IMG/VR virus record: IMGVR_UViG_2690316068_000002
DNA: 64,000 nt
Strand: one strand, 5' to 3'
Source of the DNA: a virus
Taxonomy: Duplodnaviria; Heunggongvirae; Uroviricota; Caudoviricetes
Part shown: piece by piece, positions 16,799-40,306 of the stretch
How the letters are laid out: the number at the start of each line of letters is the position of its first letter
Position numbering within the stretch: position 1 is the first letter of the stretch
Position numbers and translations under genes: made by a program
Notes under the pieces: generated by a model
Databases searched by the model: none
What the model was told of the DNA's origin: nothing
Seen by the model: only the letters and a program-made list of their open reading frames with translations

Positions 16799-17460
16799 AA
16801 ATGAACCTCATCATGACTACCATTGTGATATTCCACCTTCACGCGTTCTTTGTAGTGCTTGGTGATCTGCATATCCGGGCGCAGCGCGTTCTTCAGGTCT
16901 TCGTGAGTCGTCGCCACCATTACCGTCGCACCAACCTTTCGAGCGGCACGCTGGAGGTTAGATGCCACAACCTGAGCGGTTACACGGTCTAGAACAGCAC
17001 CGAACTCGTCAGCAGCCCACACTTTAGCGCCTGACTCAATCAGTTTGGCAATCTTGAGACGATATTTCTGACCGTCTGACATTTCAGAAGGCTTGCGAAC
17101 AAACAGATATGCATCGTTCAGACCAGCCATAGATAACAACCCAAGCGCATCGCTGGTCGTTTTGCCCAACTGATCGATGACGTTAACCTCATTATCGAAG
17201 GTAAAATCATCGATGGAGGCTACAGACAGCCCTTCATCCTTCATCTGTCGTTGCAACTCGCGCAGCACAACGGATTTGCCGGAACCGGATTGGCCGGTGA
17301 TGTACACCACATCGCCCTGCTTCACTTCCAGCTCCAGATTGTCGTAAAGCGTCCACTCTTTTTCGTCCAGGCCAAGCCCGAACGACTCAGCGATTTCCAA
17401 CGTGCGCGTGGTTTTATTTACGCGTGTCTGAAACGATACGTTGATGATGTATTTGCTCAT
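16795..17460 (-). CDS. Stand-alone ABC-type ATPase
   Basis: 221 aa; Walker A GQSGSGKS, ABC signature-like SDGQKYRL, Walker B VWAADEF, H-loop TTHED. Confidence 0.7.
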   Translation of the reverse strand: MSKYIINVSFQTRVNKTTRTLEIAESFGLGLDEKEWTLYDNLELEVKQGDVVYITGQSGSGKSVVLRELQRQMKDEGLSVASIDDFTFDNEVNVIDQLGKTTSDALGLLSMAGLNDAYLFVRKPSEMSDGQKYRLKIAKLIESGAKVWAADEFGAVLDRVTAQVVASNLQRAARKVGATVMVATTHEDLKNALRPDMQITKHYKERVKVEYHNGSHDEVHL

Positions 17461-18158
17461 GCAGCCATCTCCCCGGAAGAGATCTTCTCCGCATATGCCA
17501 CAAATGCGTCTACCCCGCTTTCTCCCGTCATTTCTTCCATGTGGGCAAGCAAATCACCAACAACAATGGCAGAGCCAGCAGGAAGCGTTTTAAAGCCCAA
17601 TACGTCGACAACACGTACTTCTTCCGCTGCAACTTCACGACTGATCTCGGTGTGTTCATCCTTCTGTCGTTTAGTTTCTTCGCCAAGATCGATAACTAGC
17701 GAGTCGGTGTCCATTTCTTCTGTCATGCTGCCAACGAGAACATTCAACTCACGCTCTTCAAAGCCGAAAACCTCGATATCGTCCAGAACAAGCGACTCAA
17801 GCTCTTTCTGTAGCTTAATTGCATCGTAATCAATGCTGGCAAGTCGGTTATCTTCAAGGCGCTTCGCACGAACCTCGTCATCACTGAGATCATCGCGAAC
17901 AATAACCGGTACGCGCTCAAGTCCAGCAAAAATTGCAGCCTCACGGCGGCCGTGGCCAGTAATAATTACGTCGTTCTTATCGACCGTAATTGGCTGGTCA
18001 AATCCGCGCTTTTTAATGGCTGCGGCTAGATCTCGGATCTGCTGTTCATCATGCTTTTTGGCATTCATCTCATAGGGAATAAGATCTGCCGGGTCGCGAT
18101 ATACGATTTCAAACTTTTTGGTCATTACATACGCTCCTTGTAGTAGTCGACCAGCCAC
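17457..18158 (-). CDS. ParB N-terminal domain (ParB/Srx-like) protein
   Basis: 233 aa; ParB-type motif ITGHGRREAA; acidic C-terminal half. Confidence 0.6.
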   Translation of the reverse strand: MAGRLLQGAYVMTKKFEIVYRDPADLIPYEMNAKKHDEQQIRDLAAAIKKRGFDQPITVDKNDVIITGHGRREAAIFAGLERVPVIVRDDLSDDEVRAKRLEDNRLASIDYDAIKLQKELESLVLDDIEVFGFEERELNVLVGSMTEEMDTDSLVIDLGEETKRQKDEHTEISREVAAEEVRVVDVLGFKTLPAGSAIVVGDLLAHMEEMTGESGVDAFVAYAEKISSGEMAA

Positions 18159-18823
18159 ACCAGAGCCTCACCAGCGTTCTCCATTTCATTACCGGTGTTA
18201 ATAGCCTGCTCTTTGATGATGTTTTTTATGGTTTCTGCAACACGATCTGACGCATCGAAAGTTACTTTGAAGCGCATGGTCTGATGTTCCGCCCCCACAC
18301 GTTCGGTTTTCTCTCGTTTGTCGGTATCGACAGGCTCATCACTACCACGAGACAACGCCTCCAGTGCTTCAAGGTCGATTGCCGCCTCTTTTGCTAAAAC
18401 CATCGAGATTTCGTCGTCATACGGGGCGATTTCAGACAGTTGATAGTCAAGTTCTGACTGAATTTCTTCAATGAAGCGTTGCAATGCGATTTGGTCGTCT
18501 TCACCGTATCGCTCGTTGTCCACCAGTGACATCTGTTTAGCTACGACATCGCTAATTTTGCCCACAGAAAGCACCGGAACCGTTGAAATTCCTTGCTCAA
18601 TAGCAGCACGCCAGCGATGTTCGCCGCCGAGGATTTCAAAAAATCCATCTTCAAGTTCACGAGCCAAAATTGGCTTAAAAAAGCCCAATTTTTCGATAGA
18701 ACCTTTCAGTTTTTCAAAATTCTGCGCACCAACCGAATTGGTGTTCCAGGTATTCGGGCGAAGGTTGGCAACATCAACCTGCAAAATCGTGATTTTTACA
18801 TCCATTTTATTGCTACAATCCAC
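18125..18823 (-). CDS. ParB-like nuclease domain protein
   Basis: 232 aa; ParB-box-like ILGGEHRWRAA. Confidence 0.55.
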   Translation of the reverse strand: MDCSNKMDVKITILQVDVANLRPNTWNTNSVGAQNFEKLKGSIEKLGFFKPILARELEDGFFEILGGEHRWRAAIEQGISTVPVLSVGKISDVVAKQMSLVDNERYGEDDQIALQRFIEEIQSELDYQLSEIAPYDDEISMVLAKEAAIDLEALEALSRGSDEPVDTDKREKTERVGAEHQTMRFKVTFDASDRVAETIKNIIKEQAINTGNEMENAGEALVWLVDYYKERM

Positions 18824-18887
18824 TAAGTAATCACTTACTTATTATAATAGCCAAATAACATACAAAAGGCACTAAGGAAAGAGGTTT

Positions 18888-20447
18888 ATGACTGTTCGGA
18901 TTGTATCTAACGCAGTAAATGCGCTTATTTCTGGCGCAGATGACAAGGTAAAGCAACTGGTGCAGCAAATGTTGAGCTACGAAGTCGAGACTGGCGACTG
19001 GAAGGGCACAAGCACGATGTTCAACTGGAGTAAAAACTCGTTCCCTGCTGGCTTTGCCAAGCCTGTAGCGGCGAACTTGAACAAGGCGGGCATCAAATGT
19101 GTTCATATCCGCAAAGACAAAGCCCCGGCGCTTGGTAAACCAAATCCGGCGGTTAACCCATTCCCATACAATCCTGATTATGCGTATCAGGATCAGACTG
19201 TGGAAACACTGGTTCGAGAGGGAATGATGATTGCGCAGATCGCTACTGGTGGCGGGAAATCTAATGTTGCCTGCAAAGCAGCTGCACGTATCGGTCGAAT
19301 GACATTATTTTTAACAACCCGCTCTGTTCTGATGTTTCAAATGGCCGAAAACTTCCAGAGATCCATCGACTACCGCGCCGAAAATGGCGAACCGTGGTTA
19401 AAGGGCCAAAAGGTTGGAGTCATTGGCTCGGGTGAGTTCCAGGTATCACGACATATCAACGTCGCTACAGTTCAAACTCTGGCAAGTTTCCTTGAAGAAC
19501 CACCACGCGATGCAACACCAGATAAAAAGAGCTACCACCTCAAACGTCGGGAGCTAGTGAAACGCTTCCTTTCAAGTGTGTCTCTGCTTATTCTGGAAGA
19601 AGCGCATGAGTCTTCAGGCTCTAATTTCTATGACATTGCCAGATTATGTGTGAACGCAGACTATCGTCTGGCGCTTACGGCCACGCCGTTCATGAAGGAT
19701 TCTACAGAAGCCAACATGCGTCTGATGGCTGTGGCCGGTCGAATTGAAATTAAAGTCACAGAAAAGTACCTGATTGATCGAGGCATTCTGGCAAAACCGT
19801 ACTTCCTTTATCATAAAGTTGCTTACAAGCCAGACGAGGTCAGAATCAAGGCGGAACTTGCCAACAAACACCTTAATTTTAGAGTAGGTATGAGCACAGC
19901 CTACCAAAAGGCTTATCAGTTGGGGATCGTGTATAATTTGGGACGTAACGAGGCCATTGTGCGCGAAGCATTGCTCTATAAGCAACATTCTCTCAATTGC
20001 ATGACTCTGGTTCGTCTTAAACGCCACGGGCAAATCCTGATGGAGATGATGAAAGAGTCCGGCCTTAGAGTTGACTTCATCTATGGGGAATCGAACCAGG
20101 CGACAAGGCAAGCAAAGCTGAACAGTTTAGCGTCTGGAGAAATAGATGTTTTAATAGGCTCGACTATTCTGGATGTCGGTGTTGATGTGCCAAGCGTGGG
20201 CGCGGTCATTCTTGCTGGTGGTGGGAAAGCAGAAGTTGAAATGAGGCAGCGTGTCGGTCGAGGCTTACGAGCCAAGAAGAATCAGGCAAACGTGTGTTTT
20301 ATCACTGATTTCATTGACATTAGCAACAAATACCTGTTGTCTCACTCTTATGAGCGAAAACACATCATCGACACCACACCTGGCTTTGCAGAAGGTGTAT
20401 TGCCTATTGATGGCGCATTCGATTTTGGAGTTCTGAAACGAGATTAG
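18888..20447 (+). CDS. SF2 (DEAD/DEAH-like) helicase
   Basis: 519 aa; Walker A TGGGKS, motif II LEEAH, motif III TATP, motif VI QRVGRGLR. Confidence 0.8.
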   Translation: MTVRIVSNAVNALISGADDKVKQLVQQMLSYEVETGDWKGTSTMFNWSKNSFPAGFAKPVAANLNKAGIKCVHIRKDKAPALGKPNPAVNPFPYNPDYAYQDQTVETLVREGMMIAQIATGGGKSNVACKAAARIGRMTLFLTTRSVLMFQMAENFQRSIDYRAENGEPWLKGQKVGVIGSGEFQVSRHINVATVQTLASFLEEPPRDATPDKKSYHLKRRELVKRFLSSVSLLILEEAHESSGSNFYDIARLCVNADYRLALTATPFMKDSTEANMRLMAVAGRIEIKVTEKYLIDRGILAKPYFLYHKVAYKPDEVRIKAELANKHLNFRVGMSTAYQKAYQLGIVYNLGRNEAIVREALLYKQHSLNCMTLVRLKRHGQILMEMMKESGLRVDFIYGESNQATRQAKLNSLASGEIDVLIGSTILDVGVDVPSVGAVILAGGGKAEVEMRQRVGRGLRAKKNQANVCFITDFIDISNKYLLSHSYERKHIIDTTPGFAEGVLPIDGAFDFGVLKRD

Positions 20448-20449
20448 TT

Positions 20450-20728
20450 ATGAGCGAAAAGAAAACAACTTATTGCCAGGTGGCATTGTCCGATAAGGCC
20501 AATGACAAACTTGGAAAGTTTCAAATGAAACTAAAAGAAAAAAACATCAAAATGTCTAAGGCTGAAGTTATCAATACCATTCTGGAAGCGATGACAATGG
20601 CTGAATTTGACAAAGTTTCATCTGCCGTTGGAGTCTCTGCTAAGGCTCGTGAGAAAATCATGCGCATCTATGAGAACTCTAATATGACAAAGGAAGATTT
20701 AGAGCAAATTCTAAGCAAACTGCCATAA
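20450..20728 (+). CDS. Hypothetical protein
   Basis: 92 aa ORF starting 3 nt after helicase stop. Confidence 0.45.
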   Translation: MSEKKTTYCQVALSDKANDKLGKFQMKLKEKNIKMSKAEVINTILEAMTMAEFDKVSSAVGVSAKAREKIMRIYENSNMTKEDLEQILSKLP

Positions 20729-20982
20729 CATTTCACATTGCCTCCATCCGCCAATTCCAAGATGTGCTTACTTGTAAAAGGAGCACATCAATTGATGTGG
20801 CCTAAAGAATGAATTTAATCAAGACAAACATTGAATGATTAATAGACTACGATAGTGTCCAACAGGGCATTCTCATGTGACATTTGTCACATTTTTAACC
20901 GCATAAGTCTCCGGCTGAAAAAAGTTCTTGATTGGCTGAATGATATTTGTAGGCTTATCAATGTTTAGAGCCGGAGGTGTGA

Positions 20983-21525
20983 ATGGGTGTACTTGACATT
21001 GATAGTAATTACTTAAGTGCAAGGCGAATAAAGGAATGTGTTCATATCTATTGTAAATCAAAGCAGTCTTGTTTAGAAAAGCAGGCGTACCTAACATCGT
21101 CTCAAAAAGGAGAGCACAAACTCATCAAATATAAACTAAAGGCTTCGCGCAAAGATCGTTATGAGCACTATATATACGTAAAGGATATTGAAGGTACCAA
21201 GACAAATTGCGGTATTATCTTTTATCCCTATGATATATCAAGACTGTTCTCCATTATGAAATCCTGTGTCGGCGTAGCTCCAGGTAAATTAGAGTTGCAT
21301 TCAAACTTATACGATTACCCAAATGCTCAAAAACAGATAAACGATAGTACTTCGCCCTATGGATTTTCGTTTCTCTTCAAGAATCATCTCGCATTGAAAG
21401 ATTTCATCGAAAAATACAATGAAGGAATAATATCAGGCGAATTAAATTTCAACAAAATCTGCGGAGATATAAAGAGGGACGACCTTTTAATAGATATTTA
21501 CAATAGAACCCAAGTTAACGTGTAA
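20983..21525 (+). CDS. Hypothetical protein (AT-rich cargo)
   Basis: 180 aa ORF in strongly AT-rich DNA, first of a four-gene plus-strand cassette. Confidence 0.5.
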   Translation: MGVLDIDSNYLSARRIKECVHIYCKSKQSCLEKQAYLTSSQKGEHKLIKYKLKASRKDRYEHYIYVKDIEGTKTNCGIIFYPYDISRLFSIMKSCVGVAPGKLELHSNLYDYPNAQKQINDSTSPYGFSFLFKNHLALKDFIEKYNEGIISGELNFNKICGDIKRDDLLIDIYNRTQVNV

Positions 21526-21552
21526 CCATCCATTAATCATAGCCAGACAAAT

Positions 21553-21972
21553 ATGAAAGTAACAAACCTATTTATTCTAACACTAGCCACATCACTAATT
21601 GGGTGTTCATCTTCATCTATATCTGTTTCAAAGGCAAAGTATGCACCTCAAAGCAGAATATTTAAATATCAAACACCACATGAGTCTAGTCTAACAATAG
21701 TTAGAGACAAAGGCCTGGTTGGTTCTGGATGTAACGCTTCCATATTCATCAATGGAGAAACGGCAGCAAAATTGGAACCTGGTGAAAAAGCAACTTTCTA
21801 TCTTAATGAAGGAGATTGGATCGTTGGGGCATCAATTGAAAGTTCAGGTCTTTGCGCATTTAACCCCTCTAGGATGGAGCGAGAAATAAAACTAAAGCAA
21901 GGCGACGCGAAAACATATCGGGTTTTCACTACCTGGGATGGTACAATGGATATATTGCCAACCACTTTATAA
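21553..21972 (+). CDS. Putative lipoprotein
   Basis: 139 aa; signal peptide with lipobox (LIGC) at residues 15-18. Confidence 0.6.
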   Translation: MKVTNLFILTLATSLIGCSSSSISVSKAKYAPQSRIFKYQTPHESSLTIVRDKGLVGSGCNASIFINGETAAKLEPGEKATFYLNEGDWIVGASIESSGLCAFNPSRMEREIKLKQGDAKTYRVFTTWDGTMDILPTTL

Positions 21973-21979
21973 TGATATG

Positions 21980-22501
21980 ACGACGAAAGACATCACCTAC
22001 GGTGTGCCAGCAGAAGTCTGGCCGCGAGATTACACTAACGTTGAAAAACTACTGATGTTCTGGCGCAGAGAACAAATTCCTGTAAGGGTCACTCTCGAAG
22101 ATGGCCAGGCGTTTTGCATGTACGTTTATGGCCTCATGCCATCTCGTAACAAAGTTGACCTTTGCCCAGCCCCTTTTGACAAAGAAAATCGTATAAGGCT
22201 CCCACTTGAACGCATTAGTACAATTGAATCAGGTGTGGTTGACAGTATCGCTCACGATTTCAAAGGTCGACTAACAGTTCACCCTGATTATGTCGATAAT
22301 CGGCCATCACGCCGCGATTTTTTTGCAATTTGCAACCAAGCCTACAAAGCAAACAAATCTATAAGGGTGTACATGGCGGATGGCCGTGAAATTGAGGGGG
22401 TGTCAGCAGGCGCAGATGCTTGTCAGGTTACACTACGTGTCGAGAACGGTAGAAAAATAGTTGTTTTGTTCGATTGGGTTGAACGAATTTTGCCTTTTTG
22501 A
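21980..22501 (+). CDS. Hypothetical protein
   Basis: ORF-track 21938-22501 overlaps the lipoprotein gene; an internal Met (MTTKDITYG) just after its stop is the likelier start. Confidence 0.45.
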   Translation, partial: TTKDITYGVPAEVWPRDYTNVEKLLMFWRREQIPVRVTLEDGQAFCMYVYGLMPSRNKVDLCPAPFDKENRIRLPLERISTIESGVVDSIAHDFKGRLTVHPDYVDNRPSRRDFFAICNQAYKANKSIRVYMADGREIEGVSAGADACQVTLRVENGRKIVVLFDWVERILPF

Positions 22502-22504
22502 GTT

Positions 22505-22813
22505 ATGAAATCGATATTGTTACCACCATTATTTTTACTTTGCTCAGTTGCGGCAAATGCAATGGACTATAAGCCTGTCATTCAGTCGCTGATGAATGAC
22601 GTGTGCTCAACGTCTCAGAATGTATCAGTTTGCATGTATCAATTTTCGGCAGCCGTAAAAGCAGGAAAAGCGATAGGTGAGAATGTGGAACTGTGTAAGA
22701 AAGTGGCAAATGAAGAACGGGCAATGTTGGATTGCGAATCTAGCGAGTCATCGGCACAGTTCGTTGATGCGCTATTTGACACCAATCGTAAGGCTGTAGA
22801 GTCTGTTCAATAA
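22505..22813 (+). CDS. Putative secreted/periplasmic protein
   Basis: 102 aa; N-terminal signal peptide (MKSILLPPLFLLCSVAANA) and several Cys. Confidence 0.55.
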   Translation: MKSILLPPLFLLCSVAANAMDYKPVIQSLMNDVCSTSQNVSVCMYQFSAAVKAGKAIGENVELCKKVANEERAMLDCESSESSAQFVDALFDTNRKAVESVQ

Positions 22814-23096
22814 ATCTATAAGGTTAATAACCGGCTAAGTCCGGTTATTATTTTTCACATCACTTCTTTATATCTACAAATCAAATAACCTAAATATATA
22901 TAAGGTCTAAAGCCGCAATCGATTATTTATTTAGGGAACACCTTCGACGATCTCGCTTTTATTTCTAGGACTTTCATCCCTGCAAAAAATTTAAAAAAAA
23001 CACTTGCAATCTTTTTTCGCGTATCGATAATTGAACTCGTCGAAAGCGAAGACGCTAACGACAATAAATTTTAAATTTACATAAGGAAAAATTATC

Positions 23097-23747
23097 ATGG
23101 CTAACATTATCATTTCTAAAAAGTCCATCATTGAAGCTGCATCTATTGTATCCGACGAGCTGCGCGAAAAAGCAGATCTGGCAACTCAAACATATAACGA
23201 ACATTATAAAAATGGTACGCACACTAAAGCAGACAAAGCAAATATGCAAGCTGCGACCACTAAACTTGCTTACTTCATCAACAACGTTGTAAACGCTGTA
23301 GAAGACGAAAAATTATGCTCTGTTTTCTACTATGCGATTAAAGCAAGCAAACAAGCGCCAGAAGTATTTTTCCGTGATGCAATGACTAATAGTTATTCTC
23401 TGGAAAAACTGGTTTATCTGGTTAAATCCATTAAAGCTGGTAAATGCGTTTATTCCGTCGCTGATATGTCTGGATCTCGTGTATTCGCTTTAATCGATAT
23501 GATTAACGACGAGATCGACACGTTCACTAATGGCGCTGTTTTCGATTTAATGAATGAAGCTAAAAAAGCGTGCGAAATTAAATTGGACGCTGGCTATACT
23601 CAAGCCAACCAGTTGATCAATCTTTGCGAACGTCTTGGACTTGTTGAAAAAGTCAAAGGAGCTGGGAGCGCGAAAGCTGGTACTCAGCAATATCGCTTCG
23701 TTAAAAATGATTTCTACAATTATTTAGCTGATGCTTTTAAAGCGTAA
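23097..23747 (+). CDS. Hypothetical protein
   Basis: 216 aa ORF after an AT-rich promoter-like region. Confidence 0.5.
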   Translation: MANIIISKKSIIEAASIVSDELREKADLATQTYNEHYKNGTHTKADKANMQAATTKLAYFINNVVNAVEDEKLCSVFYYAIKASKQAPEVFFRDAMTNSYSLEKLVYLVKSIKAGKCVYSVADMSGSRVFALIDMINDEIDTFTNGAVFDLMNEAKKACEIKLDAGYTQANQLINLCERLGLVEKVKGAGSAKAGTQQYRFVKNDFYNYLADAFKA

Positions 23748-23795
23748 TTAATGGAATCAAGCGCCCACAATGGGCGCTTTAAAGGAGCTTTAAAA

Positions 23796-23999
23796 ATGGT
23801 CAGCTATGACAAGATCCGCGCGGAATATCGCGCAAAGTATCGCGCTTATAAACTGGAATTAATCGATGTTTTGATCGCGCAACGCGACCAATTAAATTTT
23901 ACGTTTTCTGATTTGCTTAACAGTAAACGAGATTGTAAGCGTAAACGTGAATATTTACGTTTAAGCGCATTAATCGGAAAACTGCAAAATTCTATTTAA
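23796..23999 (+). CDS. Hypothetical small basic protein
   Basis: ORF-track start at 23751 would place a terminator-type hairpin (agcgcccacaatgggcgct) inside the coding region; internal Met (MVSYDKIR) is more plausible. Confidence 0.35.
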   Translation: MVSYDKIRAEYRAKYRAYKLELIDVLIAQRDQLNFTFSDLLNSKRDCKRKREYLRLSALIGKLQNSI

Positions 24000-24019
24000 T
24001 TTTTTTAAGGAGCTTAATC

Positions 24020-24699: not shown

Positions 24700-24860
24700 A
24701 CCAGCTTCCCGATGTTTTTTCTACATAAAGGCGAATGCAGCCGTTTCCCGAAAAAATCCTGGCCGTTTCCCGTCGGCTCATGAATACGTTCCTCGCCGTT
24801 TCTGAAAATTTCCCTGCGGCAGCTGGTGGCTATAGAGAAAGGGCCGTTTCTGGCCCTCTT
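24700..24860. repeat. Iteron-like direct repeat cluster 1 (GCCGTTTCCCGAAA-type)
   Basis: Five to six imperfect direct copies of ccgtttccc/ccgtttctg spaced ~20-35 bp, plus ccctgcggc...tatagagaaa shared with 27126-27146. Confidence 0.6.
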
Positions 24861-24865
24861 CTCAG

Positions 24866-25348
24866 TTACACGCCATCAAGGATGTGGATGCGGTTGCTTG
24901 CGTATACATTCAGCATAAAGTTAGCGCAAAACAGTTTCCATGTATCAACGCCAGCGGTATACGTAATGTTTTTGCATTTAATCGCATTGTTGGCGATCCG
25001 CATCCCCTGCGATACTGCTTCATCGTCGGAAAATTTGAACGACGATTGAGTTTTAATCCAGACAGAAATCTGCGTAGCGAACTCAATCAGCTTGGACTGG
25101 CAGAATCGCCCGGAGCGTACCGGGAAGACGAACGTTCCGAATCCAGAATTTACCACATATGCTTTCTCAAATACCCGCGAGTAACGACGATTGCCAATGA
25201 TGTCGCGTGCAATAATGCATTTTTCTTGTGCTGACAGTTCTACCGTCTCATTGTCGCGCCATGCACCAAGTACTCGTTTTTCAATGTCAGAGAACGTTAC
25301 AGCGATATTGCCATGTGCGGGTGCGTTTACAGTAGCGATAAAATTCAT
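24866..25348 (-). CDS. Hypothetical protein
   Basis: 160 aa ORF; palindromic motif-1 immediately upstream (25366-25402). Confidence 0.5.
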   Translation of the reverse strand: MNFIATVNAPAHGNIAVTFSDIEKRVLGAWRDNETVELSAQEKCIIARDIIGNRRYSRVFEKAYVVNSGFGTFVFPVRSGRFCQSKLIEFATQISVWIKTQSSFKFSDDEAVSQGMRIANNAIKCKNITYTAGVDTWKLFCANFMLNVYASNRIHILDGV

Positions 25349-25698
25349 GATTGATTCCTTATCGTAAATAACAAATTGTTTTCTTGTTGGTGTTAATTAT
25401 CGTTGTACGAATAAGGCGTCAAAGTGGAAAGTTGCGGTAGCCGGACGGGAACAGGTGGGTTTGTCGGTTGCCTGGAGGTAAGAGGTTGGTGTTTTTAGCC
25501 TGCGGGAAACAGGATGGTCATTTAAGGCCACCAATGCTGATGGCCTTAATAATTATCGACCTATTACGCTAAGGATCTTTTCCTCAACTGATTTGTTGTT
25601 GCGACTAAACTGCCTTGCGTATCTGATGACAGAAGAGGCGTTTTGCTTTCTGACCATCTCGGCTCTTTCCTTCAGGCGTTTCTTGAAATCGCCCATAT

Positions 25699-26115
25699 TT
25701 ACCACCAGGCGCAGAAGGTCAGTCTGTTATTGTGAAAGTCGTGGTTCCTGATCAGGTCTTCCACAAGTTTTTTCAGCTTATCCACGTCATGCCAGTAACC
25801 TTCATCGTACTCCTGACTGCCGAAGAAAAAACCTTCCCGGGTAGGCAAGTACTCTTCGCAATTACTTTCGTTTATGTGCATCAAATGAGCCTTCAGAAAA
25901 CAAATGTCATTCATCGTTAATTCTAAAAGCTCACAATTTTCGACTTCACCTACGTTGCGCTCCATCCACCCAACGAGCGCATTGAACTTACGGAAGTAAG
26001 CAACCTGCTTTCTGGATGCCTCGTTATTCAGATCGTTTTTAGGCTGCGTCTCGATATAGATATCAAGTCCCATGATGGTTTCCTTATTAAGTTGCTTCAG
26101 TGAAATCATTTTCAC
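25699..26115 (-). CDS. Hypothetical protein
   Basis: 138 aa ORF (true start may be internal MGLDIY); motif-1 copy upstream (26128-26150). Confidence 0.45.
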   Translation of the reverse strand: MKMISLKQLNKETIMGLDIYIETQPKNDLNNEASRKQVAYFRKFNALVGWMERNVGEVENCELLELTMNDICFLKAHLMHINESNCEEYLPTREGFFFGSQEYDEGYWHDVDKLKKLVEDLIRNHDFHNNRLTFCAWW

Positions 26116-26190
26116 AAATCAGATAAGGCAGAAAACAAATTGTTATCGGGCATAAGAAAATGGCGCGGTTTACGCGCCATTCAAAGAGGA

Positions 26191-26652
26191 TTAAGCGAAT
26201 ACGCTTTCAGGGATTAAGGTGTCGGCAGGAATGCCAGAGGTAATGCGCAGACCGTACTGGCCAATCCAGGTGGTGCTGGTGTTCAGGCTGGAGGCGAATA
26301 CGGTGTTAACCATATTCATCATGGTTTCAAACACCTCTTCGTCAACCTGGCGGAAGTAGTTCTCGATTTTCAGCAGCAGCGGGTCAGTTGCATCGAGAAT
26401 GGACTGGTATTGAGTCGCGTACTCGCCGCCGGAGGCATCACCTTTACGCACGATCGTACTGGCCTGGACTTCGGCACCAGTTTCGGTGTTGTACGTAACA
26501 ACGGTGATTTTTGCCACATTCTTACCTTCGGCGGTTTCAGAGGCATAGTAAACATCAACTGTCAGTTTTTCGCGTTTAACGGTCATTTCACTCTCCGTAG
26601 TGTATTGGTTATTTTTATATTCTATGATCGTAAGTATGTACTTACAATACAA
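26191..26652 (-). CDS. Hypothetical protein
   Basis: 153 aa ORF-track call; likely start is the internal Met (MTVKREKL, ~26586) since the extension runs into a terminator hairpin. Confidence 0.45.
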   Translation of the reverse strand: MYCKYILTIIEYKNNQYTTESEMTVKREKLTVDVYYASETAEGKNVAKITVVTYNTETGAEVQASTIVRKGDASGGEYATQYQSILDATDPLLLKIENYFRQVDEEVFETMMNMVNTVFASSLNTSTTWIGQYGLRITSGIPADTLIPESVFA

Positions 26653-26678
26653 AAAAGCCCCGTAAGGATGGCGGGGCT
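26650..26678 (-). terminator. Rho-independent terminator
   Basis: agccccg-taaggatgg-cggggct hairpin with T-run on the minus strand, downstream of the gene ending at 26713. Confidence 0.55.
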
Positions 26679-26712
26679 GTCGTACTGTCGACTAATTACC
26701 ACTTGCACATTA

Positions 26713-27054
26713 TCAGGCTATTGCCATCACTGATGCTCTCTGAATTTCTTGCTGGGCCACGCGGTTAACTTCCATCAAGGCCAGTTCGAGCTGATGTTCC
26801 GGCCACATTCTTTGAAATGCCACCCATCCTTTTCCACGCTGGCGACGAACATTCATTACATAACGAGTAAAGGTGTTTTTATCGAAAGACACCGCTGTTT
26901 CACGGAACAGACGAATAGAGGTTCCATTGGCAACGATGTCCAGCAAAGTTAATTGAGCAACCAGCGCAGGCTTCTCTTTTCTCTTCTGGTCTTTGTCCAG
27001 ACCAAGAACCAATGATTTTTTCATTACAACTCCGTAAACAACTTGTTTTCTCAA
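26713..27054 (-). CDS. Hypothetical basic protein
   Basis: 113 aa ORF-track call; probable start at the internal MKKSLVLG; motif-1 upstream (27045-27068). Confidence 0.45.
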   Translation of the reverse strand: MRKQVVYGVVMKKSLVLGLDKDQKRKEKPALVAQLTLLDIVANGTSIRLFRETAVSFDKNTFTRYVMNVRRQRGKGWVAFQRMWPEHQLELALMEVNRVAQQEIQRASVMAIA

Positions 27055-27177
27055 TGGCGTAAATAATACCAGTAAGAAAACGGCTACAAAGCATATTGAT
27101 CAGGTGCATGAGCGATATGCAGGTTCTTCCCTGCGGCTATAGAGAAATTAAGCCAGCAATGCTGGCTTTGGTTGAGG

Positions 27178-27525
27178 TTACGCGAATACCTCAAGAAATT
27201 CCTGAACGTCCCAATGCTGGACAAGGTGAAGATAGACCTTAGAAATCACGTCATTCTCGCTATCGCATGTGAAGTAGTACTTCTGGCTGCGGTTGTATGT
27301 GTCTACACAAAATTCGCTCATATCCATAAAGTCAGCATCTTCACCCATGTCGCAAATCATCAAAGCAGGTGCGTCATCACGAGTCATCAGCTCAAGCACC
27401 CACCGCGAATTGATCAGAGTGGAAGACCAACCTTCTAACTCATAAAACTGATCAAACTCTTTTTGAGTTAATTTCTTGATTTGGTTGATGTCGATATTTG
27501 CAAACATAAAGCAATCCTTAAACAA
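27178..27525 (-). CDS. Hypothetical acidic protein
   Basis: 115 aa ORF; motif-1 immediately upstream (27527-27565). Confidence 0.5.
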   Translation of the reverse strand: MFKDCFMFANIDINQIKKLTQKEFDQFYELEGWSSTLINSRWVLELMTRDDAPALMICDMGEDADFMDMSEFCVDTYNRSQKYYFTCDSENDVISKVYLHLVQHWDVQEFLEVFA

Positions 27526-27864
27526 GATGTTTTCTTAATGGTGTTATTATCGCAATAACGCACAGGCGAAAAAGGATTTTATTCCGGTGAATGTGGTTTT
27601 GGCAGTGAGTTTTCAGGTTCAGTACCGAGTACACTTTTTACATTATTCTGATTTAGTGGCCGAAGGTGGCTGGTGGGCAGAATAATCCTCTCCCCGAAAA
27701 CCTACTGAAATCGATTGTGACCCGTTGGCTGTCTGGCACAATTACGCTGTAGCTGGGCATTCAGAGGGAGTCCAACGGTAAGTTAGTCCGCCTGCACGTG
27801 AGCGCCTCTCTTCTTCCCGCACATTACAGGTGTGTAGCCGCAACTCTCCCTCTCGCTATACCGG

Positions 27865-28010
27865 TACGCCGCCGTTCCTGAACCGGCATCGATCCTTTTC
27901 CCGAAATCCATACAGGCAACTCGACCGTTTCCCTGAAAATCCCCAGCCGTTCCCCGAAGGCAACCCAGCCATTTCTGTAGCGGGATGCAACCTTTTCCCT
28001 GTATGGACCG
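27865..28010. repeat. Iteron-like direct repeat cluster 2 (CCGTTTCCCTGAAA-type)
   Basis: Six imperfect direct copies (gccgttcctgaa, ccttttcccgaaa, accgtttccctgaaaa, gccgttccccgaa, gccatttctg, accttttccctg) at ~24-30 bp spacing; same repeat family as 24700-24860. Confidence 0.65.
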
Positions 28011-28039
28011 AAGGCTGACCGTAGGGGTGTTACGGGGGA

Positions 28040-28920
28040 TAAAATCAGGAGTTGAATAAATACGAAAAAGGAGGCGACACCCCTCCTTCCCTCCCCACTT
28101 ATACATACCTGGCTTCTTCGCTATACATGTTGTGTTTTCTTCGTGTTTTATCTGTCTCAACCTCTCTATAGGCGTTAATGCTCACTCCTTCCAGAACGTT
28201 CTATACGGCGACTATTTCTGTTGGTGAATTGGGTGTGTTGTTTTCTCTGTCGGTGTATGTGGTTTCGTTCGTTTTGCGGTGGTTCTTCTAGGGGGTGTTC
28301 TCGTCGTTTTGGTGATTGTTCTTCTCCATGTATGGAGTAATGGCAGGTGGGCGATTCCTTTCGTTATTGTGTTTGAGTTGTTTGTCTGGAGTGTGTGAAA
28401 GGCTTTTGTAGTTATTCGTGTATTGGGTAATGGCGTTTCCCGTGATTGTTATGCTTCGAGTCTTTTGGGATTGAGAGAATCCTTGCGGTTACAGGCTTCG
28501 TTGGGGTTTCAGTGATTCTGGTGTTTCTTCGCTGTTTGGGGAATGGCGTGTCGTGGGTATCGCGCGTATGAATGTTTTCGGATTGCCTGTGAAAGTTAGG
28601 TTGGTTGTCCGGTAGCCTGGGAAGAAGAGGTGGGTCTTTTCGGTAGCCTGCCATAAAGAGGTTGGTTGTTTTGGGTAATGGCATATGTGTTATTTAGTTG
28701 TTTTGTTATGCCTGAAAATAAGTTGTTTATATGGTTGTGTAACGCAACGGGAGCGATTTTGAGCGTGTGTTTTTGTTGGTAGTGTGTTGGGTCGTCTGTG
28801 GTGAAAATTGGACGCTGTGGCGCTGTCTGCTGCGTAGAATTACGGGTATAAGAAGTGATGTGTGAATACGTCAATTTTTTAGACCAAATCGGGTGAAAGC
28901 GTTGACGTTTCGTTGATCTG
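28040..28920. other. ORF-free, strongly GT-skewed region with loose ~100-bp periodic motifs
   Basis: About 75% G+T on the plus strand over ~0.9 kb; recurring GG(G/A)TAATGGC and GGTAGCCTG...AGAGGTnGGT motifs; no credible ORF on either strand. Confidence 0.6.
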
Positions 28921-29081
28921 TTATTTAGTTGTTTTCTTATTGGTATAAACAACGTTAACCTATTGATATTTAAAGGTGTGATTGCAGGTATGGAAGAAGA
29001 GTAGTGGCGATCAACGGATTCTTATAGAAAAGAATCAAATTGTGACCGCCATTATCAACTGATTGATTAAGCTAATTACAC

Positions 29082-30311
29082 TCAAACATCCCCGTTCTTA
29101 ATCCACTGCCTGACTTGCTCGTCTTGTGCGACTTCTTTCTCATGTTTGGCAATATACAAGTCTGGCAATAGGGGTGGAGCGAATTCAGGCTCTGTCGCAC
29201 GCCACTTTTCATATGCGTCACGCATGGATTTCTCAACATTCCAATGCTCCAACTCTTGGTATTCAATCGGCCAGTTATCCTGCAATCTCTTCACTGCATT
29301 AGCCAGGTCGTATCGGAAGTAAGGATTAAGACCAATGAAATTACCAGCCAGCATGTCATCAACCTCCTTCACTCTGGCAATCTTAGAAAACTTACCAATA
29401 GCAATGTTGAGGTCCCAATCTGACACGAACAACAAAAGTGCTGCAAATGCCAGAAACTTAGCTTCCCCGTATGCTCTGTCGCTAACCGTTTTTGTCTGAA
29501 ACTCAATGTAATTGCCCATCACAAAACTAGTAAGCTTATAGGTCTTACTTATCTCGTCCTCCAAATGCGATGGATCGAGAATTGTGCGGTCACGATTATT
29601 GTTTATGTGTTCTAAGATTACAGCAATGTCTCTATGTGAGACTGAAATTTCACGCAATTGCTGGAGAGTCTTGATGTGAACTCTTAGCACCTCTTTGTCA
29701 ATCGCACGCTTCCAAGAAAAACCAGGCACAGTAACCTGAATGGGCGCGAAAGGTAGAATATCAGGAGTTGTCCATGCTAGATATGCATCACGTAACCCAC
29801 TAATATAATAAAGCCAGTCTAAATGCTCGCTTTCTAACCATATTTCAAATGTGGAATCCTTTCGCTTATTGAAGAACCATTCCCTCATCTGCCACATTTT
29901 TTCTTGAGTAAATATCCCTTCCTGTATGCCGGCACAGACCAGCTTTCGTATTACCTGCGAATACTTTGTTCGATCTTTTGTGAATGAGACAAGGTGCTGC
30001 TTCACCTCAGATGTTAGTCTATCTCCATAGAAATCACATGATGGATGATGGCCTTGACCATCTTCACCGGTAAATCTGAAATGCGCCTTCTTGTGATAGC
30101 CACCATTCCTAGTGGCTCTAACGAACGAACCACCTCCAACTTTGCAAATGGGGCAGATGATATCGTCACGGGCAATAGCATGAACCGAGCTGTCATCTAA
30201 ATTCTTTAGCGCCAAGTACTGCTCAGGATCGACTTCTTTTTGTAACGATTTTGAAAAAGCGGTATCAGTCATTCCAAGCTCCGAGCAAGGGGTTATTTGT
30301 TCAATTATCAT
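29082..30311 (-). CDS. Hypothetical protein with N-terminal Cys/His zinc-ribbon-like motif
   Basis: 409 aa; CPICK...(28 aa)...HHPSCDF cluster near N-terminus; no other recognisable domain. Confidence 0.55.
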   Translation of the reverse strand: MIIEQITPCSELGMTDTAFSKSLQKEVDPEQYLALKNLDDSSVHAIARDDIICPICKVGGGSFVRATRNGGYHKKAHFRFTGEDGQGHHPSCDFYGDRLTSEVKQHLVSFTKDRTKYSQVIRKLVCAGIQEGIFTQEKMWQMREWFFNKRKDSTFEIWLESEHLDWLYYISGLRDAYLAWTTPDILPFAPIQVTVPGFSWKRAIDKEVLRVHIKTLQQLREISVSHRDIAVILEHINNNRDRTILDPSHLEDEISKTYKLTSFVMGNYIEFQTKTVSDRAYGEAKFLAFAALLLFVSDWDLNIAIGKFSKIARVKEVDDMLAGNFIGLNPYFRYDLANAVKRLQDNWPIEYQELEHWNVEKSMRDAYEKWRATEPEFAPPLLPDLYIAKHEKEVAQDEQVRQWIKNGDV

Positions 30312-30442
30312 TCGGAATTATTTACTGTCTCGCCCAGTTTCACGTCATTTTATTCCCTAGTCTAGCTTTTCTAGGGTATACAGCTTATTACAAGCTCCTC
30401 ATTATTAACTGTTTCCGTAACTCATTGATCCGCTTATACACT

Positions 30443-30751
30443 CTACCAACACCAGCACTCAAGCCCTTCAACGATCGGCGCACCACAATCAAAATGTACA
30501 GAGTCAAAGCCTACATCAAGTACTTTCTGAATGTTAGCAATCGCGCCTTCGGATATACCATATCGACGCAAGTTGTCTTTCCAGACATCATCCTGTAACC
30601 CGGCGTGGACAATACAACCGCCGTCAATTTGTGAAACCCAATCCAGCTCATTGCTTGCGATCATGAACCGGCGAGCATCTTCCTCTGATGTATGAGATGA
30701 ACTGATCAATGCCACCTGGTAGGCTTGGGTAATGTTCAACATTTCAACCAC
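30443..30751 (-). CDS. Hypothetical protein
   Basis: 102 aa ORF; motif-1 copies in both orientations immediately upstream (30754-30825). Confidence 0.5.
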   Translation of the reverse strand: MVEMLNITQAYQVALISSSHTSEEDARRFMIASNELDWVSQIDGGCIVHAGLQDDVWKDNLRRYGISEGAIANIQKVLDVGFDSVHFDCGAPIVEGLECWCW

Positions 30752-30903
30752 TCCGAAACAATTTGTTTTCTTATGTGGCTTATTATCTCAATCAACAAAA
30801 GGTAGAAAACAAATTATTTTAGGGCTTGTGTAAATCAGGAGGGATTGTGTCTATATGAAAATGCCCAGCGTGTTGCCGGGCATTGTGAAGAATGGTTGTT
30901 TAG

Positions 30904-32937
30904 TTACTTAACTTGGTGGCCTGGTTTAGCACCAGCATCCGGGCTTAACAGGAAGATATCTTTTCCGCCAGGGCCAGCAGCCATCACCATGCCTTCAGAG
31001 ATACCGAAGCGCATTTTACGCGGAGCCAGGTTAGCCACCATAATTGTGTGACGACCAATCAGTGCCTGTGGGTCTGGATAAGCAGAACGGATGCCTGAGA
31101 AGACATTACGCTTTTCACCACCGAGATCCAGTGTCAGGCGCAACAGTTTGTCAGAACCTTCAACAAACTCCGCGTTTTCAATCAGCGCCACACGCAGGTC
31201 AACTTTGGCGAAGTCGTCAAAGGTGATGGTTTCCTGAATCGGGTCGTCAGCCAGTGGGCCAGTTACCGGTGCGGCTGTGGCTTTCACTTCTTCTTTGGAT
31301 GCTTCCACCAGTGCTTCCACCTGTTTCATATCGATACGGTTATACAGTGCCTTGAACGGATTCACTTTATGGCCCAGCAGCGGTTGCTGGATACCATCCC
31401 AGGTCAGTTCTGTATTCAGGAATGCTTCTGCACGTTCAGTCAGTTTCGGCAGTACCGGTTTCAGGTACGTCATCAGCACGCGGAACAGGTTAATGCCCAT
31501 AGAGCAAATCGCCTGCAGATCGGCATCGCGCCCTTCCTGCTTCGCCACCACCCACGGAGCCTGTTCATCGACATAGCGGTTAGCCAGGTCAGCCAATGCC
31601 ATGATTTCACGGATAGCTTTACCAAATTCGCGGCTTTCCCATGCTTCGCCAATCACTTCAGCGGCATCAGTAAAGGTTTTGTACAGTTGCGGGTCAGCCA
31701 GTTCGCTTGCCAGCACGCCGTCAAAACGCTTGTTGATAAAGCCTGCATTACGGGAGGCCAGGTTAACCACTTTGTTCACGATATCGGCATTCACGCGCTG
31801 AACGAAATCCTCCAGGTTGAGATCGATATCATCAATGCGCGAAGAGAGTTTCGCAGTGTAGTAGTAACGCAGGCTGTCGGCGTCAAAATGATTCAGCCAG
31901 GTGCTGGCTTTAATAAAGGTGCCGCGAGACTTGGACATCTTCGCGCCGTTCACCGTCACATAGCCATGAACAAACAGGTTGGTCGGCTTGCGGAAGTTGC
32001 TGCCTTCCAGCATGGCAGGCCAGAACAGGCTGTGGAAGTAAACAATATCTTTACCGATGAAGTGGTACAGCTCGGCGGTGGAGTCTTTCTTCCAGTATTC
32101 ATCGAAGCTGGTGGTATCGCCGCGCTTGTCGCACAGATTCTTGAAGGAACCCATGTAGCCAATCGGCGCGTCCAGCCAGACGTAGAAATATTTGCCCGGC
32201 GCGTTCGGAATTTCAAAACCGAAGTAAGGCGCATCTCGGGAGATATCCCACTGTTGCAGGCCGGATTCAAACCATTCCTGCATTTTGTTCGCCACCTGCT
32301 CCTGCAACGCGCCGCTGCGGGTCCATGCCTGCAACATTTCGCTGAAAGAAGGCAGATCAAAGAAGAAGTGTTCGGAATCACGCATTACCGGGGTAGCGCC
32401 AGAAACCACCGATTTCGGCTCGATCAATTCAGTCGGGCTATATGTTGCGCCGCAGACTTCACAGTTATCGCCGTATTGATCTGGCGCTTTACATTTCGGG
32501 CAGGTGCCTTTTACAAAACGATCCGGCAGGAACATGCCTTTTTCCGGGTCGTACAACTGAGAGATAGTGCGGTTTTTAATAAAACCGTTCTCTTTCAGGC
32601 GAGTATAGATAAGCTCAGACAACTGACGGTTCTCTTCGCTGTGCGTCGAGTGATAGTTGTCATAGCTGATGTTAAAGCCTGCGAAATCAGTCTGGTGTTC
32701 CTGACTCATTTCGCCAATCATCTGCTCCGGTGTGATACCAAGCTGCTGTGCTTTCAGCATGATCGGCGTACCGTGGGCATCGTCGGCACAGATGAAATTA
32801 ACCTCGTGGCCGCGCATTCGCTGGTAACGAACCCAGACATCAGCCTGGATGTGCTCCAGCATATGGCCGAGGTGGATTGAGCCGTTAGCGTACGGCAGCG
32901 CGCACGTCACCAGAATTTTCTTCGCGACTTGGGTCAT
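30904..32937 (-). CDS. metG: Methionyl-tRNA synthetase
   Basis: 677-aa product from [29 protein letters not shown] (HIGH motif), KMSKS motif, C-terminal tRNA-binding domain; near-identical to enterobacterial MetG from memory. ORF-track upstream extension (to 33066) rejected. Confidence 0.95.
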
Positions 32938-34232: not shown

Positions 34233-34622
34233 CTACATCACGGGACAATCATCAAACTCGCCACTTCTTGCGTCGTTGATAATGTGAGTGATCACACCAA
34301 ACACGGCATTGCTGCCCGTGCATCCATCGTCATCCTTTGGCAATGCTTCCTTCTTACCGGTTCTTAAATCCTCCAGATGCTGACGTGGATACTTCCGGTA
34401 TCTTTTTACGCGATATTCCCCATCCAGAGCGCATACAAGCAGAGAACCATCAACCGGGGTAAGTGAGGAATCGACCACCAGCAATGCACCCTGTAATATT
34501 CCCTCACGATGATGACTATCAGCTGCCCTCATGAAGTAGGTCGCTGAAGGATGTCTAATTATCTGCTGATCAAGAGAAATACGGCTCTCAGCATAATCCG
34601 CCGCAGGAGAAGGGAAGCCCAT
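34233..34622 (-). CDS. UmuD'-like S24 peptidase-family protein (N-terminally short relative to UmuD)
   Basis: 129 aa; begins MGFPSPAADY, i.e. at the position equivalent to the RecA-facilitated Cys24-Gly25 cleavage site of UmuD; Ser (ADSH) and Lys (RVKRY) positions conserved; C-terminal insertion relative to UmuD. Confidence 0.7.
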   Translation of the reverse strand: MGFPSPAADYAESRISLDQQIIRHPSATYFMRAADSHHREGILQGALLVVDSSLTPVDGSLLVCALDGEYRVKRYRKYPRQHLEDLRTGKKEALPKDDDGCTGSNAVFGVITHIINDARSGEFDDCPVM

Positions 34623-34638: not shown

Positions 34639-34658
34639 TACTGTATATACATACAGTA
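34639..34658. promoter_or_regulatory. LexA (SOS) box
   Basis: taCTGTatatacatACAGta, a perfect CTGT-N8-ACAG palindrome, 17 bp upstream of the UmuD'-like start codon and its AAGAGG Shine-Dalgarno. Confidence 0.75.
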
Positions 34659-40187: not shown

Positions 40188-40306
40188 TCTTAACTCCGTT
40201 GTTTTCTAGTTGTGGTTATTTTCACAAATAAGAAAAGGTAGAAAACAATTTATTTAAGGCCACAACTTATGGCCTTTATTTATTCATGCCGAAGGATTTG
40301 TAGCGT

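Follow-up and report, generated by a model that had tools for sequence, protein, structure and literature searches.

The question raised by this locus is what a short palindrome, repeated just ahead of the start codons of many genes, does for the element that carries it. The whole stretch of DNA analysed here (64 kb, hereafter the window) is part of a phage-plasmid of the SSU5/pHCM2/pMT1 type. Clinical Escherichia, Salmonella Typhi, Klebsiella, Enterobacter and Yersinia pestis commonly harbour phage-plasmids of this type, which can carry resistance genes; to our knowledge, the gene regulation of these elements is essentially unstudied. Most likely, the palindrome marks genes that are switched off together by one DNA-binding protein. 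Phage and plasmid regulons built on a repeated operator are already a well-known kind of system; a full-text literature search returned no description of this particular motif.

The core of the motif is a 13-base palindrome, AAACAA-N-TTGTTT (6-1-6). Searching the window with AAACAANTTGTTT at up to one mismatch returned 13 matches against 0.38 expected, and no more than two matches were found in any of 100 dinucleotide-preserving shuffles of the window, confirming an enrichment over shuffled sequence. Across the whole 110.6-kb element (CP057251.1) we counted 17 copies of the palindrome, four of them beyond the window, and all 17 fall in annotated intergenic DNA, the coding share of the element being 82%. 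The preliminary description had placed the motif upstream of at least ten minus-strand genes, and ten such genes were located in the window (14804-15436, 24866-25348, 25699-26073, 26713-27024, 27178-27507, 30443-30742, 39546-40187, 44196-44765, 45063-45488 and 54566-55708). Every position that it named holds a copy (starting at 25369, 26133, 27036, 27520, 30756, 30807, 40243, 44784, 45513 and 55734, together with a half-site at 40191-40209), and to these we add a tandem pair (15477 and 15502) and a weaker copy (28716).

The motif proved to be part of a stereotyped cassette, about 75 bp long, that comprises, in order, a T-rich stretch, a GCCTT box, a -10, a ACACCAACA-type start region, the palindrome, a Shine-Dalgarno and the ATG. 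The consensus of about 35 bp with a TTATTATC extension was correctly described at the outset; the gene-strand reading of TTATTATC is a GATAAT -10-like hexamer lying 10-11 nt upstream of the 16-mer AGAAAACAAnTTGTTT, and we refine the earlier reading by inferring that this extension is the -10 and the palindrome the operator part. In genes of the usual type, 11-25 nt separate the end of AGAAAACAAnTTGTTT from the ATG. The -10 is GATAAT-like and often extended by TGn (16/30 downstream-type units and 16/23 upstream-type units), and the cassette is without a canonical -35: scanning 24800-31000 with the canonical sigma-70 -35/-10 consensus called zero motif-linked promoters, and the nearest TTG to the -10 is a palindrome arm at 19-bp spacing, as against 16-18 bp for a canonical TTGACA-like -35. 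The GCCTT box is conserved at about -29 to -24.

The palindrome occupies two positions only, with its centre at about +14 or about -38 relative to the inferred start, values that rest on the -10 assignment, or it occupies both, 51 bp apart. Among 89 palindromes from eight lineage samples, gene-strand -10-like hexamers peaked at just two places, where their end lies 20 nt before the palindrome centre (25/89 sites) and where their start lies 26 nt after it (22/89 sites, 16 of the 22 with TGn); mirror-image peaks on the opposite strand, at 27 nt and 19 nt, arise because the hexamers are nearly palindromic. Spacings between neighbouring palindromes form two clusters of four pairs each, at 51 bp and at 25 bp. 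The site is also not fully symmetric, the AG(A/G)AAAC side always facing the -10 and the TTGTTTA(A/C)GG side facing away, so that a simple symmetric dimer is no sufficient explanation. The promoter of the parA operon has a geometry unlike that of the other cassettes.

Several units in the window are headed by a downstream-type palindrome on the minus strand. For gene 24866-25348, the palindrome (25369-25381; centre about +14) is followed by an ATG 20 nt past the 16-mer, and the GATAAT hexamer (25395-25400, minus strand) ends 20 nt from the palindrome centre. The same arrangement recurs at gene 26713-27024 (palindrome 27036-27048, ATG 11 nt past the 16-mer, extended -10 TGGTATTAT at 27063-27068, minus strand), at gene 27178-27507 (palindrome 27520-27532, AAACATCTTGTTT on the gene strand; extended -10 TGCGATAAT at 27546-27551, minus strand), at gene 44196-44765 (44784-44796, exact match) and at the TerB-family gene 45063-45488 (45513-45525, exact match). 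Gene 25699-26073 has instead an upstream-type palindrome (26133-26145, plus strand; centre -38), whose AGAAAAC half faces the -10, and its extended -10 TGTGAAAAT (26108-26113, minus strand) starts 26 nt from the palindrome centre. The inverted pairs mentioned in the preliminary description are real. At gene 30443-30742, the extended -10 TGAGATAAT (30782-30787, minus strand) is flanked on both sides, by a downstream-type exact match centred at 30762 (30756-30768, minus strand) and an upstream-type palindrome centred at 30813 (30807-30819, plus strand; -38), 51 bp apart. At gene 39546-40187, an upstream-type palindrome centred at 40249 (40243-40255, plus strand; -38), which adjoins the terminator hairpin of the gene upstream, is paired with a half-site AGAAAACAAC (40191-40209, minus strand) that is merged with the Shine-Dalgarno and corresponds to a downstream-position copy that has lost its outer arm. 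The terS-like gene 14804-15436 is preceded by two minus-strand copies 25 bp apart, the first (15502-15514) reading AAACAAGTTGGTT on the gene strand with CCTAAT 10 nt upstream of AGAAAAC, and the promoter-distal one (15477-15489) being an exact match; this tandem pair and the hairpin after it are kept in Yersinia, Kluyvera and a MAG. A further copy (55734-55746, minus strand) occupies the spacer between nrdA and nrdB, has a poor -10 and stands 25 nt ahead of the nrdB ATG; in Cronobacter and Klebsiella this spacer holds a second palindrome 25 nt downstream.

The core is identical in all lineages sampled, from Escherichia, Salmonella, Klebsiella, Cronobacter, Yersinia, Kluyvera and Buttiauxella. 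Sampled stretches of four other lineages held 11 sites in pHCM2 and, as both-strand matches, 6 in Kp2, 13 in Cronobacter and 22 in a diverged Klebsiella, the expected number being below 0.2 in the three tested. The region is matched by more than 700 PLSDB records, and among the matches listed for the exact 18-mer in IMG/VR viral contigs, 109 of 120 loci were SSU5-like. Across the 20 kb examined of one lineage (L178-L181), each of the six promoters carries the palindrome only upstream of the extended -10 (cTGgGATAAT), their leaders being free of it, and at least one of these upstream palindromes lies beyond the terminator of the gene before it. For one orthologous gene, that of DUF4942, the placement varies by lineage: pHCM2, Kp2 and Cronobacter have the +14 site, L178 has the -38 site alone, and KpB has both.

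Intergenic confinement, orientation to the genes, a fixed distance to the -10 and family-wide conservation all support the original proposal of an element-specific promoter or operator that would define a co-regulated gene class. At a probability of roughly 0.55, we read the motif as the operator part of a promoter-operator cassette heading about 17 transcription units, bound by a repressor that silences this gene set; what we infer in this reading is where transcription starts, that control is by repression and not activation, and which protein binds. A protein bound at the palindrome, whether downstream or upstream of the -10, would exclude or trap RNA polymerase, and in some promoters paired operators 51 bp apart, about five helical turns, would flank the -10. 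Kept silent in the plasmid-prophage state would be small early-type genes, the helicase, cobT, nrdB, an HD-domain gene and the terS operon. In lysogens of Cyrano, a close relative, motif-led genes are at background, about 5-20 normalised counts (PMC9928086 S1 table). The parA operon stands as an exception, carrying the motif yet being expressed in lysogens, at 36-100 normalised counts in Cyrano (PMC9928086 S1 table).

That the palindrome acts on DNA is argued by the diverged lineage that uses only the -38 position and by the negligible RNA hairpin, which is worth -0.7 kcal/mol, no better than shuffles; minimum free energies were -0.7 to -2.8 kcal/mol with z between -0.4 and +0.6, palindrome variants altered in a single arm occur without compensating change, and there were no Rfam matches within the window. 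Two other explanations place the activity in the transcript. FljA blocks translation of fliC mRNA, and the element encodes an FljA-family Sm-like protein among its core genes (21977-22501, plus strand); conceivably, though we think it unlikely, this protein binds the leader AGAAAACAAnUUGUUU of a transcribed copy beside the Shine-Dalgarno, blocks translation and destabilises leaky early mRNAs. The usual copies do lie in the leader adjoining the Shine-Dalgarno, and the fliC leader has CAAGUUGU in common with the motif. However, upstream-type copies lie outside the mRNA and in reversed orientation, they are the sole copies in the 20 kb examined of the L178 lineage and suffice there, the spacing is fixed to the -10 and not to the Shine-Dalgarno or ATG, and an RNA operator would have to work without a stable hairpin. 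The protein diverges while the motif does not, being only 26-35% identical between lineages that share the invariant core, against 58-91% for most of the other core proteins compared, and in Cyrano lysogens the mRNAs are not just untranslated but themselves at background (PMC9928086 S1 table). That the motif is a cis-acting A/U-rich translational enhancer or leader working without a dedicated trans-acting factor, as the leader of phage T7 gene 10 does, strikes us as highly improbable. The T7 leader AGAAATAATTTTGTTTAAC, verified in T7, matches AGAAAACAAnTTGTTTAAG at 14/18 specified positions and likewise lies just upstream of a strong Shine-Dalgarno, and leaders from which the outer arm has been lost still retain the inner half AGAAAACAA, a hint that the transcribed sequence may have a further role. 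Left unexplained by such a leader are the exact 6-1-6 complementarity, the untranscribed -38 copies and the 51-bp and 25-bp spacings, and the near-invariance of the motif far exceeds what S1-type enhancers need.

On the DNA side, the palindrome might be bound by an activator or dual regulator made early after induction, the cassettes then being 'middle' promoters without a -35 of the kind served by T4 MotA, P1 Lpa and P2 Ogr. A canonical -35 is indeed absent, TGn is present in only about half of the promoters, the GCCTT box is conserved, the -38 position is near that of class II activators, and the separate canonical sigma-70 promoters of the CI-like repressor could supply the early activator. 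As in T4 middle promoters, a -10 is kept, a phage-specific box near -30 replaces the -35 and copies are many; the element also has a T4-like set of replication and recombination genes, with UvsW, UvsY, gp32-like, Frd and RNase H by the Cyrano annotation. The box here, GCCTT(T/A)TC (about -29 to -21), is only loosely similar to the MotA box TGCTTtA (centred at -30), and the additional palindrome likewise sets these promoters apart from those of T4. The genes are silent without induction in Cyrano lysogens (PMC9928086 S1 table), in keeping with activation. We nevertheless regard activation as doubtful, in that the commonest position in most lineages is +14, within the transcribed region where activators normally do not work, one orthologous gene switches between +14 and -38, and no candidate protein was identified. 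A conserved Enterobacteriaceae host protein, such as a nucleoid-associated or global regulator, would account for a core that stays invariant while the element's candidate regulators have diverged to about 30% identity, and the motif matches the IHF consensus WATCAANNNNTTR at 7/9 specified positions and the lambda H' site at 10/13. This origin of the binder appears very unlikely, however: the IHF-defining ATCAA occurs in 0 of about 90 copies, the third position is A or T-free in all listed copies, we know of no E. coli regulator with the motif's consensus, and the element itself encodes an alternative with an invariant putative DNA-reading segment.

That alternative, and the best candidate for the repressor of our preferred reading, is a 117-residue protein encoded after a small ParA at CP057251.1 30907-31260 (same element, outside the window). 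By its sequence it reads as a putative ribbon-helix-helix centromere-binding protein of the ParG/omega type, with a pattern of a strand, SRTMS, followed by two helices that fits this fold; Pfam, a PDB profile search and hhalign against ribbon-helix-helix sequences gave nothing significant in support. The protein is 48-51% identical between lineages and keeps PQGRPTRGK..I(K/Q)SRTMS.EDE and F(T/N)RSDVIRAAI invariant, the invariant segment putatively being the one that reads DNA. If it is the binder, it would be a plasmid-wide repressor in the manner of KorB or omega. In lysogens of Cyrano, expression of the corresponding protein exceeds background 9-fold (PMC9928086 S1 table). Upstream of parA, the motif is found in E. 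coli (L002 31970-31985), Buttiauxella (L130 2843) and the diverged Klebsiella (L186 5013). Besides the FljA-family protein, the other candidate regulator is a 92-residue protein (window 20450-20728). It is unlikely that the partition protein after parA uses the roughly 17 palindromes as centromere-like sites as well as operators, with the tandem-Sm protein of the FljA family as a second layer on A/C-rich leaders. Plasmid keeping and lytic gene silencing would then be done by one protein, and FljA, which acts as a repressor in Salmonella flagellar phase variation, would be a relative, since domesticated, of a translational repressor from phage-plasmids. The tandem-Sm protein is a neighbouring, fast-diverging one, and the A/C-rich leaders are conserved.

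Among known systems, omega (pSM19035) and ParG (TP228) are ribbon-helix-helix centromere-binding proteins of type Ib partition systems, small, encoded after a small ParA and bearing an Arg-rich N-terminal tail, which autoregulate the par operon and bind paired 7-bp subsites. The 6-1-6 palindrome corresponds to exactly two inverted 7-bp subsites and stands at the par operon promoter in the three lineages named above, but omega and ParG sites form arrays at a few promoters, whereas here some 17 single or paired sites are spread over 110 kb. KorB of the IncP plasmid RK2, a partition protein doubling as global repressor of many operons, recognises OB, TTTAGCSGCTAAA, a 13-bp 6-1-6 palindrome with about a dozen dispersed copies, and its class I operators lie just upstream of the -35, at about -39. 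The 17 dispersed 13-bp copies in 110.6 kb and the upstream class at -38 recall this arrangement; the motif sequence is unlike OB, copies here also lie at +14, and KorB is a ParB-family HTH protein as opposed to the small candidate protein after a type-Ib-like ParA. A KorB-like binder of the ParB family expressed in the plasmid state finds no support in Cyrano lysogens, where both ParB_N proteins of the element (window 17457-18805) are at background level (PMC9928086 S1 table).

On the best reading, the regulon of this motif and that of the CI-like repressor are distinct; a different dispersed palindrome, TARGTAAGnnCTTACYTA (13 window copies against 0.32 expected), belongs to the CI-like repressor. 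The divergent control region beside the CI-like gene (L002 17739-17989) contains no AAACAAnTTGTTT and holds GGTAAG..CTTACC palindromes instead. Phage P1 C1 offers a likeness, a plasmid prophage governing many scattered operons through one short repeated operator. The C1 operator ATTGCTCTAATAAATTT is nevertheless asymmetric and gave zero matches at up to three mismatches, and the motif studied here is absent from the control region of the CI-like master repressor; the C1-type role seems to be filled by the TARGTAAGnnCTTACYTA family. Together, two dispersed operator families, two promoter classes and a short list of testable candidate regulators provide a regulatory map with which the lysis-lysogeny circuitry of the family would become experimentally tractable. 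The weaker copy of the motif, TGAAAATAAGTTGTTT (28716-28728, plus strand), lies within a 1.5-kb non-coding stretch, and its place beside TAACGCAACGGGAGCG..TGAGCGTG is kept in other lineages.

The element is a member of the SSU5/pHCM2/pMT1 phage-plasmid family. The region of the finding is 99.7% identical to the E. coli plasmid pRHB31-C19_2 (CP057251.1, 110,652 bp; record coordinate minus 45,667 gives the window coordinate), and the phage-plasmid Cyrano of E. coli LF82 aligns at 97% identity across 78% of the region's length. Almost all genes in the window lie on the minus strand; tail and head genes come first, then a small-gene block, metG, and the genes of nucleotide metabolism and replication. 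A low-G+C block at 20000-24000 (0.39-0.40 vs 0.45-0.50 elsewhere) holds plus-strand genes, including lysogen-expressed regulators.

The preliminary description had placed copies of an element-specific promoter or operator motif, centred on the palindrome AAACAA-N-TTGTTT, upstream of minus-strand genes, and a copy was present at each position listed. With ≤1 mismatch allowed, AAACAANTTGTTT matched the window 13 times, where dinucleotide-preserving shuffles predict 0.38, and the extended consensus it had proposed was also borne out, reading GATAAT(A/T)AACACCAAcA-AGAAAACAAnTTGTTT-AAGGAg on the gene strand with the ATG 11-25 nt further on. Additional copies were found in the window at 15477 and 15502, with a weaker one at 28716, and four more in the rest of the element upstream of a 141-residue gene, cobT, the DnaB-like helicase gene and parA. 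All 17 copies in the element (17/17) are intergenic by annotation, the coding fraction of the element being 82%. The sequence ACACCAACA was too frequent within coding sequence to be assessed as a motif of its own. Strong over-representation of the motif core extended to pHCM2 of S. Typhi (11 sites in 40.7 kb), one Klebsiella and one Cronobacter plasmid, Yersinia pestis pMT1, Kluyvera and Buttiauxella, and likewise to a second Klebsiella plasmid, so diverged that its nrd region shows just 69% identity. In IMG/VR the exact 18-mer occurred at 120 loci or more, and 109 of the 120 listed are SSU5-like; at the remaining 11, all on AT-rich contigs, the copy stands isolated with no cassette architecture around it, and these look like chance matches rather than a motif shared with other phage families. 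Given this distribution, the motif appears specific to the SSU5-type family, and no description of it was found in the literature searched.

Alignment of about 100 oriented motif copies resolved a promoter cassette in the order T-rich stretch, GCC(T)TT(T/A)TC box, -10-like hexamer, start region, palindrome and Shine-Dalgarno sequence. The hexamers read GATAAT, TATTAT, GAAAAT or CACAAT, about half of them with a TGn in front, and the start region is conserved as (T/A)AACACCAAcA. A standard -35/-10 scan of 24800-31000 called none of the motif-linked promoters. A -35 at 16-18 bp is absent from them. Across 89 palindromes from eight lineage samples, gene-strand -10-like hexamers peaked at two distances from the palindrome centre and no others, either ending 20 nt upstream (25 sites) or starting 26 nt downstream (22 sites, TGn in 16); being almost palindromic, the hexamers also give mirror peaks at 27 nt and 19 nt on the opposite strand. 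A transcription start about 7 nt past the hexamer would put the palindrome centre at approximately +14 or -38; here we infer the transcription starts, these two position labels, the binder and the direction in which it regulates. Both positions are occupied in four promoters, 51 bp apart and flanking the -10, and 25-bp tandem copies occur in the terS and nrdB leaders. The site is oriented, always with AG(A/G)AAAC towards the -10.

Plus-oriented copies were considered as independent divergent promoters or sources of decoy small RNAs, and a terminator does follow in that direction after some of them, though only some, while none has a -10 at the standard 10-nt spacing. For these two reasons the plus-oriented copies are read as the -38 operator of a minus-strand promoter. 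An RNA hairpin or riboswitch-like element was likewise rejected: the folding energy (-0.7 kcal/mol) was no better than that of shuffles, single-arm variants occur without compensation, and an Rfam search of the window gave no match. In a diverged lineage (L178-L181) the palindrome lies only at -38, in 6/6 promoters over 20 kb, with TGCCT and cTGgGATAAT after it; one or more of the six promoters come after an intrinsic terminator that belongs to the gene before, and the leaders are palindrome-free. Orthologues of the DUF4942 gene differ in where the site lies: pHCM2, Klebsiella p2 and Cronobacter have it at +14, pB-KP1118-1 has both positions filled, and L178 has the -38 copy only. Together, the hairpin result, the L178-L181 promoters and the DUF4942 orthologues point to a palindrome that acts as DNA. 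A site that can change sides of the core promoter without its gene leaving the regulon would fit a repressor operator rather than an mRNA element or a conventional activator site. A simple symmetric repressor does not explain the asymmetry of the site, nor the retention of AGAAAACAA in leaders without the outer arm. The T7 gene 10 leader matches the motif at 14/18 positions, a likeness that keeps alive a minor role of the transcribed inner half as a possible translational enhancer. The E. coli element itself no longer has the palindrome at its DUF4942 gene (41453-43138), whose leader (43139-43180) instead contains a 12-bp perfect inverted repeat (TTGCACCATTAA...TTAATGGTGCAA) up to the start codon.

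Cyrano is inducible by ciprofloxacin (PMC9928086), and in RNA-seq of LF82 lysogens carrying it the motif-led genes lie at local background, about 10 normalised counts, with the exception of the parA operon at 36-100 counts (PMC9928086, S1 table), the sole motif-led operon expressed in lysogens. Background counts fit either repression at the level of transcription or lack of activation. Three plus-strand core genes after uvsW are also expressed in lysogens.

The element encodes a CI-like HTH repressor outside the window (CP057251.1 17990-18376; CYRAN_45 in Cyrano), and the motif was rejected as its operator: the repressor's control region has no motif copy and contains another palindrome instead, the gene being flanked by GGTAAG..CTTACC. 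A second palindrome, TARGTAAGnnCTTACYTA, has 13 dispersed copies in the window versus 0.32 expected (30-47, 6535-6552, 10110-10127, 12026-12043, 13533-13550, 18824-18841, about 26620-26647, 41435-41452, 46414-46431, 48627-48644, 53461-53482, 58171-58188 and 62856-62873), often within the spacer of canonical sigma-70 -35/-10 promoters of other genes, for example 26191-26586, nrdA, thyX and dam. As related copies flank the CI-like repressor gene, this palindrome is probably its operator. With separate palindromes at separate promoter types, the element would have two promoter classes with two different operators.

Proteins of the element were weighed as possible binders of the motif. The FljA-family protein ('repressor of phase-1 flagellin'; 21977-22501, plus strand) is encoded by a core gene of the phage-plasmid family, even where the hosts are non-flagellated, and is modelled as two Sm/Hfq-like domains; a genome-contig search with its profile returned 5 loci. 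The 92-residue core protein directly after uvsW (20450-20728, plus strand; N-terminus TTYCQVALSDKANDKL...) was attractive at first, being highly expressed in Cyrano lysogens (114 vs background 10) and having a strand-helix-helix-like pattern; its structural model was poor (pLDDT 50), no RHH match was found, and its identity is only 33-34% between lineages with a common motif core. Both proteins retain only 26-35% identity among three such lineages, against 58-91% for most other core proteins compared, a divergence that for the FljA-like protein resembles that of immunity determinants. Regulators that diverge in this way are poor candidates for an invariant site, and as sole explanation the FljA-like protein is further weakened by the untranscribed copies. 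The best candidate, to which we give about a one-in-three chance, is a 117-residue protein encoded after the 222-residue ParA (CP057251.1 30907-31260, outside the window), in an operon whose parA promoter carries the motif in three lineages. Its overall identity is 48-51%, yet its Arg-rich tail and core are invariant (PQGRPTRGK..I(K/Q)SRTMS.EDE and F(T/N)RSDVIRAAI), and we read it, tail included, as a putative ribbon-helix-helix protein of the ParG or omega kind. Proteins of that kind typically target two inverted 7-bp subsites. The 117-residue protein belongs to no Pfam family, and Pfam, PDB profile search and hhalign gave no confirmation of the fold; its probable role is centromere binding in a type-Ib-like partition system.

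Functionally, the layout resembles the dispersed operator networks of P1 (C1), RK2 (KorB/OB) and pSM19035 (omega). The OB sites that KorB recognises on RK2 are likewise 6-1-6 palindromes of 13 bp and include positions near -39. By sequence the motif system falls outside all three, its binder being a candidate only: the OB sequence differs from the motif, and the P1 C1 operator is absent. T4 middle promoters share with the cassette the lack of a -35 and a box near -30.

Several other elements were seen in the window. A umuD-like S24 peptidase gene (34233-34622), whose expression in Cyrano lysogens is strong, has a perfect LexA box (TACTGTATGTATATACAGTA; 34639-34658) immediately upstream. The 1.5 kb at 27540-29090 have no annotated gene and no Rfam match, are G+T-rich on the plus strand, and contain degenerate repeats (GGGTAATGGC, CGGTAGCCTG..AGAGGT(G/T)GGT) and partial motif copies; Salmonella, Cronobacter, Buttiauxella and Kluyvera have conserved the segment TAACGCAACGGGAGCG..TGAGCGTG that adjoins the 28716 copy, and the stretch may serve as an origin or encode a non-coding RNA. 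A terminator-like hairpin (AGAGCGC..GCGCTCT, then GTGTGTTTT, gene strand; 15447-15475), conserved in Yersinia and Kluyvera, separates the tandem palindromes from the terS start; its placement, after the promoter and ahead of the late operon, suggests control of the terS operon by antitermination. At 24808-24860 and 27125-27170 the 3' ends of minus-strand genes carry a further repeat, TTCCCTGCGG..CTATAGAGAAA, with a GC-rich hairpin after it.
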